Positions 46,849-51,585 are shown, counted from the stretch's first letter. The stretch: DNA of 64,000 nt from an uncultured Candidatus Saccharibacteria bacterium (GCA_964593365.1 CAZQGQ010000002.1:85671-149670), one strand, 5' to 3'. A program made the numbers and translations. Notes: generated by a model not told the origin, from the sequence alone.

Positions 46849-49056
46849 TTATTTTGCTACCTGCATTGCCTCTTCGAACTTGACTGAGAGGAGCTTGCTG
46901 ATGCCGTCGCCTCCCATAGTGACGCCGTACAAAATACCTGCACGACCCATGGTCTCGCGGTTGTGCGTGATAACGACGAGCTGCGAGCGCTTGGAGAGGC
47001 TATCGATCATGTCTCCGTAGCGGCGCGAGTTAGCTTCGTCGAGAGCCGCGTCGGTCTCATCAAGGATCAAAAATGGCGGCGGATTCACCTGGCTCATCGC
47101 GAAGATGAGCGCGATTGAGGTAAGTGCGCGCTCGCCTCCTGAAAGCTGCATAAGAGACTGCAGCCGTTTCTTAGGGAGATTCACCTGCACCTCAAGGCCA
47201 GGGCGTACCTCTCGCTGTACTTCTTCTGGAGCTTCGTCTTCTTCGTCCTCTTCAGCAGGAGCGATATCCTCAAGCACGAGCTTTGCTCCTCCTCCCCCGA
47301 ACATGAGCGCGAAGAACTCGGTAAACGATTCGTTCACCTTCGCCAGTCCTTCCGCAAAGTTCTTCGCAAGCTCCTCATCAAGATCGCGAATCAGCTCCTC
47401 GAGGCCGATGACTGAGTTGGCAAGATCTTGAAGCTCGGTAGCAAGGAACTCCTCGCGGTTCTTGGTTTCCATATATTCGCTTCGCACTTCTTCTCCGGTG
47501 CCTCCCGCCTCTTCAAGACGAATCTTCAGGCGCTCAAGGGTTCGCTTGCGGTCTTCTTGCACTTTGCGGTCTTCCTCGGGAAGTTCAGACAGCGGCTCGT
47601 ATGAAAAGGCTTGGCTTCCGGCAAGCGCGAGTACTTCTGCTCGCTCGCGTTCAAGCTCCTCGCCAAGGTAATTTAATTCTTTGATTCTTGCTTCAATGCG
47701 CGCGAGTGAAGATTCGAGCTTTGCGCGCGTTTCTGCAAGCTCAAGTATTCGGTGCTGATTCTCACGTCCGGTCTCCTCATGCGCCGTGCGCTCCTCGCGT
47801 GCCTTAGCAAGCACCTTCCGCGCTTCCTCTACGCGAAGCGCTATTGCGCGATCTTTATCTGAAAGCGCCTCTCGCTCTTTCTCAAACTTCTGCACGGCCT
47901 GCTCCTCATCTGCAAGATAGTCGCTCTCGCTTGCCCCATAGCGGTCAAAGAAGGCCATGACCGCAGAGCGAAGCGCTCGAAGGGCTGCAGAGAATGCGGA
48001 GATATCTGCTGTTTCAGACAGTGCGGTCTGTCGCTCTACTTCGTCTTTGAGGACCTTCAGGTCTTCGCGCGGGACTTTCACATACGGCTCGCGGGCTAGG
48101 AGTGCACTGCGACGCTTGGCCTCAGACAACGCTCCTTCAATACGACCCATGTCTCGCGAGAGATCGGACTGTTCTGCGATTGCACGATCAAGCTCGCGCT
48201 CTGCCTGGCGCACAGCTTCAATGCGCTTCATTCCTTCGCTCTCTCCCGTCGTCTCTCGCTCAAACACTGAAATTTCTTGCTCGGCAACAGCAAGGCGCGC
48301 TGACGTGTCGCGTTCCTCAGCTTCAGTCTTTACCCGCTCTACCGCAAGGTATTTTTCTTCTATTGCAAAGTATTCGCGCGCGGAGCCTGCAAGGTCTCGC
48401 CCGAGCTCTTCTGCGCGCTCCAACTTCTCTACCTGCTTCTGCAAGAACTTCAGGTGCGGAGAAAGTTCCCGACGAAGGGCTTCTACTTCCCGTACGTTGT
48501 CGCGAGTCTTATCGAGCTTTCGGATCGCTTCCTGCTTCTTGAATTCAAAGACCTTAAGGCCGAGCGCGTCCTCGAGCATGGCTCGGCGCTCACGCGGAGC
48601 TGAAAGCAAGATACGATCCGCTTCTCCTTGAGAAATGATGTGGTGACCGGTCTCGCCGATGTTTGCGGAAGCGAGGAGTTCCTGGATATCGCGGAGGCGA
48701 ACCTTGGAACCGTTGATGGAGTACTCGCTTGCTCCGTCTCGGAATACCGCACGCTCTATCTGTACCTCGTCAAAATCGATCTTAGGGAAGATGCGCTTGG
48801 TGTTATCAAAGATGATCACTACCGATGCACGGTTCGCGCGAGGGTTCGTATGTGAGCCCGCAAAAATAAGATCCTCGCTTCGCTTGCCGCGCATGCTTTT
48901 CATGGATTGTTCGCCAAGCGCGAAGCGGAAGGCTTCTGCGACGTTTGATTTACCTGAACCGTTAGGGCCCACAATGGCAGTAGCTGCCGACGAGAAATCG
49001 AGCACGGTTTTCCGTGCGAACGATTTGAACCCGACGACTTCAAGCCGCTTCAGCAT
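46849..49056 (-). CDS. smc: SMC-family ATPase, short form (approx. 736 aa, no recognisable hinge domain)
   Basis: SMC N-terminal head MLKRLEVVGFKSF...GPNGSGKSN, a long coiled coil, and a C-terminal signature LSGGERALTSIALIFA plus Walker B FLILDETDAALD. The track ORF extends to 49491, but the true start is the internal Met at 49056, with a -10 TATAAT 7 nt upstream. Confidence 0.8.
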   Translation of the reverse strand: MLKRLEVVGFKSFARKTVLDFSSAATAIVGPNGSGKSNVAEAFRFALGEQSMKSMRGKRSEDLIFAGSHTNPRANRASVVIIFDNTKRIFPKIDFDEVQIERAVFRDGASEYSINGSKVRLRDIQELLASANIGETGHHIISQGEADRILLSAPRERRAMLEDALGLKVFEFKKQEAIRKLDKTRDNVREVEALRRELSPHLKFLQKQVEKLERAEELGRDLAGSAREYFAIEEKYLAVERVKTEAEERDTSARLAVAEQEISVFERETTGESEGMKRIEAVRQAERELDRAIAEQSDLSRDMGRIEGALSEAKRRSALLAREPYVKVPREDLKVLKDEVERQTALSETADISAFSAALRALRSAVMAFFDRYGASESDYLADEEQAVQKFEKEREALSDKDRAIALRVEEARKVLAKAREERTAHEETGRENQHRILELAETRAKLESSLARIEARIKELNYLGEELERERAEVLALAGSQAFSYEPLSELPEEDRKVQEDRKRTLERLKIRLEEAGGTGEEVRSEYMETKNREEFLATELQDLANSVIGLEELIRDLDEELAKNFAEGLAKVNESFTEFFALMFGGGGAKLVLEDIAPAEEDEEDEAPEEVQREVRPGLEVQVNLPKKRLQSLMQLSGGERALTSIALIFAMSQVNPPPFLILDETDAALDEANSRRYGDMIDSLSKRSQLVVITHNRETMGRAGILYGVTMGGDGISKLLSVKFEEAMQVAK

Positions 49057-49071
49057 TGAGGCAATTATACC

Positions 49072-49116
49072 GTATATAAATGTGTTGACGCGCGCCCGTA
49101 TCAGGTAGCGCGCGTC
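49072..49116. repeat. 45-bp element containing a perfect inverted repeat GACGCGCGC-N12-GCGCGCGTC (copy 1)
   Basis: It lies between the end of small membrane gene 49146..49460 and the SMC promoter. The sequence is gtata-aaa-gtgttgacgcgcgcccgtatcaggtagcgcgcgtc. Confidence 0.8.
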
Positions 49117-49145
49117 TAAATCACCGTGAGGTGATGGGTGCCGTC

Positions 49146-49460
49146 TTAGGCGTATCTTGTTGGTTTCATCATAAAGCTGATGAGACCGACAAATCCCAAC
49201 AATACGGCGACTGCGGTGGTAATCGTCGTCAGAAGGCTCCAGTGGACGAACTGCGTGTGGGTGTCCTGGAATAGAAACACCGTAGCCCACATGATCAGGG
49301 CTGCCGCCGTCATGATGCAGCGCGAACCGCGAGGCCATCCGAAGCGAACTCCGAATCGCTCCGCGACAAGCACTACAAAGACAACGACAGTCGCCGGAAC
49401 CGCGAGCAGCAGCGCGAACTGAACTTCTAACGGAGAAAACGTGAAGAACGTTTGGGTCAT
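49146..49460 (-). CDS. Small membrane protein (3 TM), paralog A
   Basis: 104 aa with SD AAGGGG. It is similar in length and topology to the 49631..49915 ORF. Confidence 0.5.
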   Translation of the reverse strand: MTQTFFTFSPLEVQFALLLAVPATVVVFVVLVAERFGVRFGWPRGSRCIMTAAALIMWATVFLFQDTHTQFVHWSLLTTITTAVAVLLGFVGLISFMMKPTRYA

Positions 49461-49565
49461 CGGTTGTAAGCCCCTTGCTCTCGTACCGCACGAGAGCCTC
49501 GTTGAGGACTATGACACTAACAGCCGTCTTTGTCTAATTCAGTATAAATCGGTTACGGATATGCA

Positions 49566-49610
49566 GTATAGAAACGTGTTGACGCGCGCCCGTATGAGGT
49601 AGCGCGCGTC
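49566..49610. repeat. 45-bp palindromic element (copy 2; 41/45 identical to copy 1)
   Basis: gtatagaaacgtgttgacgcgcgcccgtatgaggtagcgcgcgtc, located about 20 nt downstream of paralog B. Confidence 0.8.
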
Positions 49611-49630
49611 TCCTGTTCGGCTCTGGCTTT

Positions 49631-49915
49631 TTATGCCGGCCCGTATTTTCTCCACCATCGAAGCACGAGGCACCCGATGAAATAGAGCATGGCCAAGCCG
49701 AACAGTGTGGTCCCGATGTCCCACGGTTTATAGTCAGTCCAAGCGGACTCGAACAGACATGCCACAGAACCTGCGGAACACGCCGTCGCGAGAAAGAACG
49801 CTTGAAGGATTGGCTTACGCCGCTCCATCGCCGCCATCAGAAGAGCAATGCCTCCGATGATGGCAACCAACGCAACCGTGAGAATAATAACGGGTTCGGA
49901 CGAGAATATCGTCAT
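49631..49915 (-). CDS. Small membrane protein (3 TM), paralog B
   Basis: ATG start at MTIFSSEPV (the track start 49942 is a GTG). Confidence 0.45.
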   Translation of the reverse strand: MTIFSSEPVIILTVALVAIIGGIALLMAAMERRKPILQAFFLATACSAGSVACLFESAWTDYKPWDIGTTLFGLAMLYFIGCLVLRWWRKYGPA

Positions 49916-49968
49916 GAGTGTTACCCCATACCTCTGTACCACACAGAGGCTTCGAAAGAACTATAACA

Positions 49969-50652
49969 CTACCATCCGCTCTTGTCTAGTCCGGCCTGGG
50001 CCGCTGCTTGTTCCGCTTCCTGCTTGCTCTTCCCTACCCCTCGAGCGATCTCCTTCTCACCTATGTAAACGCCAACAGTGAAATCGCGGTCATGGTCCGG
50101 ACCGTCTTCGCGGATCGTCTTGTATGCAGGAGTGATTCCCTTATGTTCCTGCGCTGCTTCCTGGAACTTACTTTTCGCATCCTGCCACGCGCGCGCCTCG
50201 ATGACCGGATCGAGCTTCGGGAACAAATGCTTTATGAGAAAGGCGTCAGCAGCTTCATATCCCTGATCAAGATAGAGGGCGCCAAGCAATGCCTCGAAAG
50301 CGTTTGCGAGAATGATCTGACGAGCACGTCCCGTGTCGCGCTTTTCCCCGCGCGAGAGAAGCAGCATGTCATTGATCCCGAGCTTCTCGGCAGTCTCTGC
50401 AAGCGAGACGGTATTCACAAGAGCCGCACGAAAGGCAGTCAGTTCTCCCTCCGGCTTTTGCGGAAACTTCGTGAAAAGAAACTGGGTCGCGGAGAGCTCG
50501 AGCACGGCATCCCCCAGAAACTCAAGCCGCTCGTTATGCGCCTTCGAGCTCTTGTTCTCGTTCAGGTAGGAGCGGTGCGTCAGCGCCTCCTCGAAGAGGT
50601 CGAGGTTAGAAAAAGTGAGCCCGAGCTTTTGCGCACACGCATTAAAATCCAT
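49969..50652 (-). CDS. rnc: Ribonuclease III
   Basis: RNase III signature ERLEFLGDAVLEL and a C-terminal dsRBD. Confidence 0.9.
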   Translation of the reverse strand: MDFNACAQKLGLTFSNLDLFEEALTHRSYLNENKSSKAHNERLEFLGDAVLELSATQFLFTKFPQKPEGELTAFRAALVNTVSLAETAEKLGINDMLLLSRGEKRDTGRARQIILANAFEALLGALYLDQGYEAADAFLIKHLFPKLDPVIEARAWQDAKSKFQEAAQEHKGITPAYKTIREDGPDHDRDFTVGVYIGEKEIARGVGKSKQEAEQAAAQAGLDKSGW

Positions 50653-50685: not shown

Positions 50686-51585
50686 CTACTTTCCCGAGCG
50701 GTCGAGCAGTTTCTGGACCGCGGTCGTCACTATGGGGAGCATGTCGTCGTAGAAGTTGAGGTTGATGATGTCTTGGAGCCTAAACCACTTGGCGTCGTCT
50801 AGGCCACCCTTCCCTTCTTCAAGCTTCAGCGGGATGTACTCGGCTTTGGCAAGGAAATACGTCACGTGCTTTCGGAACTTTCCTTTCTCCGGGTGCGAAG
50901 CGACGTATTCGTTCTCTCCGATCACATCCTCAAGGATGATATCGATTCCCATCTCTTCCTTTATTTCCCGCACCGTTCCTGCAGACAGTTCCTCCCCTTC
51001 CCACAAGCGTCCCTTAGAGAGAGTCCAGCGGCCAAACACATCGTGTACCAAGGCAAGGTAATACTGGCCTTCGTGGAAAGAATAGACGACTGCGCCGCCA
51101 AGCTCCTCAACCGGAAGCTCCTTGTGCGGCTTCTTCTCGCGCTTCCCTTGCTCGTCTTTGCCCGGGCTTCCGATTTCCTTATAGACGGCACCAAGCACTC
51201 CGTTAATGAATCGTCCGGATGATTCTCCGCCAAACACCTTGGCAAGCTCAATGGCTTCGTTAATGGCTACTTTAGGTGGAACCTGCGCGCGGTCTGAGAA
51301 CAAAAGCTCGTACAAGCCGATGCGAAGAATGTTGCGGTCGATAGCTGCGATCTTTTCAATGGGCCACTCAGGAGCGGCTTTCGCGATGATAAGGTCGAGA
51401 TCAGTTTTCTTGGCGATCACGCCCGTAAGGAGGTTTTCCATAAACGGCCGATCCGTATCGCTTCCCCCGAACTCTCCGAAGTTTCGCGCAAGCGCCTCGG
51501 GAGCATCGGTATCGGGTACAGCGGCTGTGTCCCACTCGAAGAGCGTTTGTAATACTACCGAACGGGCGAGATGCCGATTAGCCAT
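50686..51585 (-). CDS. nusB: NusB-like antitermination domain fused to a C-terminal NUDIX hydrolase domain
   Basis: The N-terminal approx. 150 aa form a NusB fold (RNILRIGLYELLF...). The C-terminal domain has a complete Nudix box, GRLWEGEELSAGTVREIKEEMGI. Confidence 0.8.
   Translation of the reverse strand: MANRHLARSVVLQTLFEWDTAAVPDTDAPEALARNFGEFGGSDTDRPFMENLLTGVIAKKTDLDLIIAKAAPEWPIEKIAAIDRNILRIGLYELLFSDRAQVPPKVAINEAIELAKVFGGESSGRFINGVLGAVYKEIGSPGKDEQGKREKKPHKELPVEELGGAVVYSFHEGQYYLALVHDVFGRWTLSKGRLWEGEELSAGTVREIKEEMGIDIILEDVIGENEYVASHPEKGKFRKHVTYFLAKAEYIPLKLEEGKGGLDDAKWFRLQDIINLNFYDDMLPIVTTAVQKLLDRSGK

Follow-up and report, generated by a model that had tools for sequence, protein, structure and literature searches.

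Immediately upstream of smc in an uncultured Candidatus Saccharibacteria bacterium, the same GC-rich palindrome stands twice, each time a short distance past a gene for a predicted membrane protein of about 100 amino acids (aa). What does the palindrome do there, and why is it present in two copies? A first-pass annotation of the locus allowed for a terminator, an operator for a dimeric regulator, or a small element of the repetitive extragenic palindrome (REP) type. We examined these possibilities computationally in a 64-kb stretch of contig CAZQGQ010000002.1 (GCA_964593365.1, positions 85671-149670), which we call the window and whose own numbering is used throughout. The terminator fits best, given a compensated stem, a varied loop, T-runs behind homologous hairpins and canonical terminators in the same slot of relatives, although the window copies lack a U-tract. 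The palindrome is thus probably the terminator-type 3′ RNA hairpin of a small-membrane-protein cassette, duplicated with that cassette upstream of a leaderless smc promoter.

A tandem cassette between rnc and smc

The core of the palindrome, GACGCGCGC-N12-GCGCGCGTC, is the perfect 9-bp inverted repeat originally described, and its two copies (49087-49116 and 49581-49610) are identical at 29 of 30 positions. A repeat search of the window places them in a direct repeat of 52 nt (49066-49117 and 49560-49611, 47/52 identical); the 45-bp repeat first reported is real, but we count 42 matching positions rather than 41. With up to three mismatches allowed, the core pattern occurs exactly twice in the window against 0.15 occurrences expected, and none of 100 shuffled sequences reaches two. 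On the coding strand, 29 nt separate the smp1 stop codon from copy 1 and 20 nt that of smp2 from copy 2 (smp1 and smp2 being the two small membrane-protein genes), in line with the 20-30 nt given earlier. A gap of 17 nt separates copy 1 from the TATAAT box and one of 30 nt from the ATG of smc; the copy lies directly upstream of the leaderless smc promoter, as had been noticed.

Gene plus palindrome had been taken for a tandemly duplicated module. This holds, and the repeated unit extends further than was recognised, since a promoter and a hairpin in the 5′-untranslated region (5′-UTR) are also common to both units. Each unit of ~494 bp comprises a sigma70-like promoter, a 5′-terminal RNA hairpin, a Shine-Dalgarno sequence (SD), a small membrane open reading frame (ORF) and the GC-rich 3′ hairpin. 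Between the units the promoter regions (TAGACA-N17-(T/C)ATAGT, extended TG), both called independently by a promoter scan, agree at 27 of 33 positions; the 5′-UTR hairpin and the GGGG behind it can be aligned, with compensatory changes in the stem; and the 22 nt that follow the palindrome match at 17. The coding sequences and the spacers from stop codon to palindrome are unalignable. In the order of transcription, all on the minus strand, the features are as follows.

49969..50652 (minus): rnc, ribonuclease III (RNase III), 227 aa; Pfam matches Ribonucleas_3_3, Ribonuclease_3 and dsrm
49960..49988 (minus): promoter of the smp2 cassette, TAGACA-N17-TATAGT, extended TG, 10/12 consensus match
49930..49950 (minus): 5′-UTR hairpin of smp2, GCCUCUGUG-UGG-UACAGAGGU, then GGGG as SD; fold and covariation
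49631..49915 (minus): smp2, 94 aa, three-helix membrane protein of a small uncharacterised family; homologs and AlphaFold (AF2) model
49581..49610 (minus): palindrome copy 2, 3′ hairpin of smp2; repeat search and fold
49559..49580 (minus): block after the palindrome, AACACGTTTCTATACTGCATAT, decayed copy of the smc core promoter; 17/22 in the unit alignment
49508..49540 (minus): promoter of the smp1 cassette, TAGACA-N17-CATAGT, 27/33 identical to the rnc-embedded promoter
49477..49497 (minus): 5′-UTR hairpin of smp1, GCUCUCGUG-CGG-UACGAGAGC, then AAGGGG; fold and covariation
49146..49460 (minus): smp1, 104 aa, orphan with three predicted transmembrane (TM) helices; self matches only, codon usage
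49120..49135 (minus): small extra hairpin, AUCACC-UCAC-GGUGAU, directly 5′ of palindrome copy 1; fold
49087..49116 (minus): palindrome copy 1, 3′ hairpin of smp1, hexaloop UGAUAC; repeat search and fold
49054..49069 (minus): smc core promoter, TATAAT at 49064-49069, 7 nt, ATG at 49054-49056; TAnnnT comparison
46849..49056 (minus): smc, 735 aa; Pfam match SMC_N

The limits of the repeat point to the origin of the second unit. The -35 hexamer of the smp2 promoter falls inside the last codons of rnc (LDKSGW*), and the smp1 promoter is embedded in a relic of that gene end, TTAGACAAAGACGGCTGTTAG, which reads LDKDGC* where rnc reads LDKSGW*. This relic, together with the decayed copy of the smc -10 box that the repeat also holds, implies that the duplicated segment covered the entire ancestral rnc-smc spacer. 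We also considered whether a remnant of the smc start codon follows palindrome copy 2 (ATACTGAA against ATGCTGAA); this is unsupported, as significant homology stops within the -10 box.

The palindrome resembles REP elements and bacterial interspersed mosaic elements in being a short, GC-rich, extragenic, imperfect palindrome that follows genes in more than one copy. Those families, however, run to tens or hundreds of copies in a genome, and here there are two at a single locus. No further copy was found in 84 kb of the same contig (the window plus 10 kb on each side, ~13% of its 647 kb), nor in ~0.9 Mb of related genomes, the scope of our motif scans, except in the nearest relative, L009. With two copies in 84 kb, we therefore reject the dispersed REP-like element that the first-pass annotation had offered.

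The palindrome as a probable 3′ RNA hairpin

Copy 2 folds into 9 bp, a UA bulge, a CC/GG extension and the hexaloop UCAUAC, so that the formal loop of 12 nt shrinks to 6 nt if the inner CC/GG pairs form. The free energy of -18.5 kcal/mol is comparable to that of the canonical terminators of the window (-13 to -23). The extra hairpin at 49120..49135 has no counterpart at copy 2 or in L009 and is probably incidental.

Members of the smp2 family were traced to four other lineages, where hairpins again follow the small genes.

L009: rnc 84% identical; hairpin GAUGCGCGG-UACCUAACACGG-CCGCGCAUC after the smp2 homolog, two compensatory pairs, then U5
L107/L108: rnc 81% and smc 89-93% identical; two tandem cassettes with different coding sequences, a 43-aa ORF with one TM helix and then an smp2-family gene
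L107/L108, hairpins: near-identical (26/28); ACGCGCGC stem with UUCG-tetraloop apex, copy A directly followed by UUUUG
L106: rnc and smc not nearby; hairpin GACGCACGC-UUUCAUUA-GCGUGCGU, then U5
L109: rnc and smc not nearby; 13-bp stem with a U·G wobble by our own reading of the sequence, then U5

Over the five copies of the 9-bp stem built on ACGCGCGC (L009, L106, both of L107, L109), 98% of positions are paired and three pairs are compensatory; the stem of L107_A includes a G·U pair. The apical loops differ: the window has UACCUGAUACGG, L106 has UUUCAUUA, and those of L107 and L109 are built on UUCG and CUUG, respectively. A T-run of 4-5 U follows the stem in L009, L106, L109 and L107_A. A stem conserved by compensation under a free loop indicates selection for base pairing in RNA of the sense strand, as in a terminator or 3′-end hairpin; an operator or a binding site specific for the loop would be expected to leave a different pattern. 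The G·U and U·G wobbles, which pair only in sense-strand RNA, likewise favour an RNA structure. Further support comes from L107, which repeats the design of the window with two tandem cassettes and near-identical hairpins.

These comparisons bear on whether the second copy has any specific function, or was merely carried along, neutral and itself unselected, when a segment was recently duplicated or gene-converted. With one difference in 30 nt, the absence of stem changes between the window copies is statistically uninformative alone, and the unit boundaries, with their rnc relic and decayed -10 box, do show passive copying. We nevertheless regard a purely neutral copy as very unlikely: coding sequences and stop-to-hairpin spacers can no longer be aligned while the hairpin is 97% identical, and the stem is compensated across five lineages even though synonymous sites are near saturation between the window and L009 (synonymous divergence, dS, 0.9-1.7).

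A terminator-type hairpin would act as follows. Each cassette consists of a sigma70-type promoter, a 5′-terminal stabiliser-type hairpin with the apex GUG-NGG-UAC, an SD, a gene for a three-helix membrane protein of ~95-105 aa and the GC-rich hairpin, and with two such cassettes in tandem between rnc and smc the hairpin stands there twice. As RNA of the sense (minus) strand, the hairpin would end or strongly pause the cassette transcript and protect its 3′ end. It would also insulate the next promoter from upstream transcription, copy 2 shielding the smp1 promoter and copy 1 the leaderless smc promoter. Its ancestor would be the terminator that, clade-wide, parts rnc, or a gene inserted after rnc, from smc, and the second copy would have come with a cassette that was duplicated, or newly inserted, when the shared flanks recombined. 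The repeat, the make-up of the cassettes, the conserved and covarying RNA structures, the hotspot between rnc and smc and the slot ahead of smc are established by the comparison; actual termination and this recombination history are what we infer.

The resemblance to intrinsic terminators is close in most respects. The palindrome is a GC-rich stem-loop (9 bp + 2 bp) on the sense strand, tens of nucleotides past a stop codon; its stem is kept by compensation as its loop varies, homologs carry the U-run, and terminators of relatives occupy the same position. The window copies depart from the type in their formal loop of 12 nt and in the missing adjacent U-tract, and the latter is the first of several observations that weigh against termination. 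Only two U occur in the first 8 nt past the stem, and neither copy was called by a terminator scan, while T-run terminators do occur elsewhere in the genome. The copies without a U-tract (the window pair and L107_B) are those that abut an smc core promoter or its relic. The missing T-run leaves room for weak, leaky or factor-assisted terminators, for which the debated "I-shaped" hairpins of GC-rich bacteria, which also lack a U-tract, offer a comparison.

A second difficulty lies in the likeness of the copies. The palindromes differ at 1 of 30 positions and the 5′ hairpins that go with them at 10 of 21 (Fisher p = 0.0002), yet against the L009 ortholog the two elements have diverged similarly (6/30 for the palindrome, 6/21 for the 5′ hairpin), and L107 shows the same within-genome likeness of its 3′ hairpins as the window. 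Selection on structure alone does not explain this likeness. It calls for a factor that reads the sequence itself, for gene conversion, or for recombination that recently joined the units within the hairpin. The loop, moreover, is kept at 10 of 12 positions between the window and L009.

The rnc-smc junction and the leaderless smc promoter

The window forms part of a metagenome contig of 646,682 bp (JGI 3300015360). Relatives of its RNase III place it in Patescibacteria/Paceibacteria, and we compared the rnc-smc region in 80 GTDB loci. Eight contigs with smp1 or smp2 (L001-L008) were set aside as evidence of conservation, being uninformative at >99.9% identity to the window; their gene calls alone differ. 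smc follows rnc in 70 of the 80 loci, at a gap of 19 nt to ~5 kb. Long gaps commonly hold ORFs of 95-120 aa on the same strand with three predicted TM helices, and these are mutually dissimilar except between the closest genomes. Across short gaps a promoter lies directly before smc, with its -35 in the LDK codons of rnc and its -10 just past the stop; the layout of the smp2 promoter, with TTGACA in those codons, is thus shared by many relatives. Judged by this variation in gene content, the junction is a hotspot, probably prone to recombination, for the gain, loss and swapping of small membrane-protein genes.

Of 50 relatives, 47 have the motif TAnnnT at 6-9 nt from the start codon of smc and none has it at a control position, which implies that smc is leaderless across the clade. 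Upstream of this box no -35 hexamer is recognisable (loci L010-L089), and a terminator usually takes its place. Where a gene has been inserted, it is followed by a GC-rich hairpin, often A/T-flanked and with a T-run, whose end lies ~21-34 nt upstream of the ATG of smc. The distance of 30 nt in the window matches, placing palindrome copy 1 in a conserved terminator slot, and the hairpins in that slot of other relatives are unrelated to it in sequence.

This position also bears on the suggestion, made in the first-pass annotation, that the palindrome serves as an operator in the DNA. A regulator acting as a dimer would then bind 9-bp half-sites whose centres lie 21 bp, or two helical turns, apart, and would repress or activate smc in one case and the relic promoter with smp1 in the other. 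The inverted repeat is indeed perfect, copy 1 fills the -35 region of an smc promoter without a recognisable -35 hexamer, the mirror-symmetric changes in L009 would fit co-evolving half-sites, and the identity of the copies would fit one protein reading both. The overlap with the -35 position thus stands, but we consider an operator unlikely. The Pfam lists show no DNA-binding regulator within +/-10 kb, the spacer is asymmetric, and the G·U pairs of the homologs, which favour RNA, are meaningless in duplex DNA. The L106 and L109 hairpins, too, follow cassettes that lie away from smc and carry T-runs, and unrelated hairpin sequences at one position in relatives fit a structural signal better than a conserved operator.

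The variability of the junction raises the further question of whether the hairpin is a recombination site, either attC-like or a short homology patch, that serves the insertion, excision or duplication of cassettes and has a transcriptional role only secondarily. Two lineages have cassettes bracketed by hairpins of the same orientation (29/30 in the window, 26/28 in L107), junction content is highly variable, the same type of cassette occurs at other loci (L106, L109), and the UA bulge recalls the extrahelical bases of attC. As in integrons, there is an array of small ORFs, each with an imperfect palindrome bearing extrahelical bases, and the content of the array varies between strains. Unlike integron cassettes, however, each window cassette has its own promoter; no integrase or recombinase appears in the Pfam lists within +/-10 kb, neither attI nor core sites of the form GTTRRRY or RYYYAAC are present, and the hairpins are not kept in more distant relatives, which share no sequence with them. 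Two relatives with two cassettes each (L013 and L022) have dissimilar hairpins, and RecA-mediated unequal crossing-over through the conserved flanks would suffice with no dedicated site. For these reasons a recombination site seems to us a very improbable primary function. Likenesses to parS, dif, the K-loop and attC were dropped because, to our knowledge, the defining motifs are absent.

Several features of the flanking genes may be recorded here. The smc frame is open upstream through palindrome copy 1 and most of smp1, giving an ORF of 880 aa (46849-49491, minus strand), and several assemblies of identical DNA carry an annotation artefact in which an "SMC" of 829 aa is called and smp1 is dropped. 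The SMC of the window is unusually short at 735 aa: SMC_N is matched from end to end, there is no Pfam match for the SMC hinge domain, and the hinge is apparently absent. Directly upstream of rnc, at 50686-51585 on the minus strand, lies an unusual 299-aa fusion of NusB and NUDIX.

The 5′ hairpin, the loop and the membrane proteins

The second RNA element of the cassette, the 5′ hairpin, starts ~2-4 nt from the predicted transcription start site and lies upstream of the SD. Over six cassettes 96% of its positions are paired and 5 of 9 pairs are compensatory, a score reached by none of 500 shuffles. Its lower stem covaries freely, beneath an apex (GUG-NGG-UAC, closed by a G·U pair) that stays unchanged from lineage to lineage. 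It is found ahead of every cassette of the type, including those at L009 761-781, L107 674-694 and L106 ~2551-2572, and in 0.92 Mb the motif occurs upstream of these cassettes only, so that we discarded it as the mark of a wider regulon. An Rfam scan of the locus gave nothing above threshold, with spurious CRISPR-DR31 and miRNA matches on the 5′ UTR only. The 5′ hairpin, with no Rfam family, is thus a candidate for a new small RNA motif of Paceibacteria that would act in cis as a regulator or as a stabiliser. Stem-loops that stabilise mRNA at its 5′ terminus are known, such as that of the ompA type. The cassette hairpin shares with them its place near the predicted 5′ end and upstream of the SD and its covarying lower stem, but differs in its invariant apex and in belonging to no Rfam family; the fixed apex suggests sequence-specific recognition beyond simple protection of the 5′ end.

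Could the 3′ hairpin, too, be read by a protein? Its loop gives some reason to ask, since the Rfam family RF03132, the L17-Actino-Proteobacteria ribosomal protein leader, has the consensus apex GG-UACCUGAUACGG-CC, which copy 1 matches at 12 of 12 loop positions including the U·G closing pair. Under this explanation the hairpin would be a sequence-specific protein-binding RNA through which L17 or another protein controls read-through into, or translation of, smp1 and smc. For RF03132 itself the L17 ligand is a prediction (Eckert & Weinberg 2020, PMC7247131). An unbiased pattern scan of metagenomes, the contig of the window not included, returned 13 matches, 12 of them in unrelated organisms, and five lay in rpoA-rplQ spacers with the same loop, one of which, at 38.1 bits, exceeds the gathering threshold of RF03132 (34.9 bits). 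Copy 2 retains 11 and L009 retains 10 of the 12 loop positions, copy 1 has a P1-like hairpin and a 3-nt linker upstream, and near-identical copies would fit one shared trans-acting reader.

The likeness to RF03132, then, lies in a GC stem, in the 10-nt loop ACCUGAUACG and in the U·G pair that closes it. The differences are more extensive. The match of the window to the Rfam model is non-significant (19.0 bits against the threshold of 34.9, E 4.2), concerns copy 1 only and covers a partial model (31-52). The element belongs to another phylum and is not upstream of rplQ, which is absent from the 84 kb. The P1-like hairpin is missing at copy 2 and in L009, and the cassette hairpins of the sister lineages L107, L106 and L109 have entirely different loops. 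Four of the 12 "loop" nucleotides form the CC/GG stem extension, the rRNA of the Escherichia coli rrnB operon contains no mimic of the loop (best matches 3/12 mismatches, chance level), and other metagenome matches show the same loop in unrelated contexts. Control by L17 or a similar protein is accordingly improbable, and the identity of the copy 1 loop to the P2 apex of RF03132 is probably coincidental.

As for the metagenome matches themselves, the five rpoA-rplQ spacers (L090, L091, L095, L096 and L098) are from GC-rich bacteria and their P2 shares the 12-nt apex of palindrome copy 1; one of the five loci reaches the gathering score of RF03132 and the others match P2 alone. Two GC-rich contigs (L094 4140-4177 and L099 2564-2601) carry a 10-bp GC hairpin with the loop UACCUGACACGG between apparent phage capsid or structural genes, where the loop recurs outside rplQ leaders.

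A bolder proposal would join both RNA elements, with the 5′ hairpin (GUG-NGG-UAC) and the 3′ hairpin (UACCUGAUACGG) as sites for a dedicated RNA-binding factor. The 3′ apex would be a genuine motif of the L17-leader type, recruited outside rplQ, and the units bounded by hairpins a mobile cassette system specific to Paceibacteria. We think this very unlikely; if it were true, the level of free ribosomal protein, and with it the growth status, would set both how strongly the fast-evolving small membrane proteins are expressed and how far transcripts read through into smc.

The coding content of the cassettes is less constant than their frame. For smp2 a word-index search gave one match, at 58% identity, and an exhaustive HMMER search with the smp2 profile added eight further cluster representatives, all of 91-98 aa and aligned over their full length. 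The family shares the motifs MTIFSSDP, ERRKPILRAF, LE..WT and RWWKKWGPA. The ratio of nonsynonymous to synonymous change (dN/dS) against the L009 ortholog is 0.43, compared with 0.07 for rnc, and marks smp2 as a real, fast-evolving gene. Its AlphaFold (AF2) model consists of three long TM helices at a predicted local distance difference test score of 84. We rejected a kinship of fold to entries of the PDB, the hits being only generic NuoK-like bundles of three TM helices at non-significant E >= 0.2. Scans of both proteins against Pfam, PHROGs, NCBIfam and PADLOC gave sub-threshold noise only. For smp1 there are no homologs among 5.8 billion proteins, only self matches, and codon usage ranks the annotated frame first among the six.

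The two proteins had been described as paralogous. They are alike in length and topology; smp1 keeps L-F-Q-x3-T-x4-W at the position of the only invariant Thr of the smp2 family, BLASTP matches the pair over 18 aa (E 0.013), and their global alignment score of 30 stands against a maximum of 29 among 76 unrelated pairs of three-TM proteins. This short motif and marginal score give the claim weak support, and smp1 finds no match in the smp2-family profile (hhalign probability 1%). Paralogy is plausible because the flanks are clearly homologous; at the protein level it is weakly supported and falls short of demonstration.

Other lineages vary the coding content further. At L107 451-582, the first cassette after rnc encodes the 43-aa single-TM peptide within the same frame of promoter, 5′ hairpin and 3′ hairpin, which indicates that unrelated coding sequences have been fitted into one and the same frame. 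At L009 1239-1283 another small hydrophobic ORF (MGLILLWVFAGLVVV...) begins past the hairpin and before the contig ends, and that lineage probably carries two or more cassettes.

The palindrome by itself is most likely an ordinary gene-end hairpin and gives no reason to speak of a novel kind of regulation. What is modestly new for Patescibacteria is descriptive: the hotspot, the design of the cassettes and their conserved 5′ hairpin. For genome annotation, the locus is a reminder that some gene callers extend smc through the palindrome and thereby lose smp1. The comparison documents a conserved leaderless smc promoter across Paceibacteria and a compact, reusable cassette design whose covarying 5′ RNA hairpin lies outside any Rfam family. 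It also documents the rnc-smc junction as a hotspot where genes for small three-helix membrane proteins, which evolve very fast, come and go and are exchanged; such genes are thought to matter for the surface biology of the episymbiotic, reduced-genome bacteria of the candidate phyla radiation (CPR).

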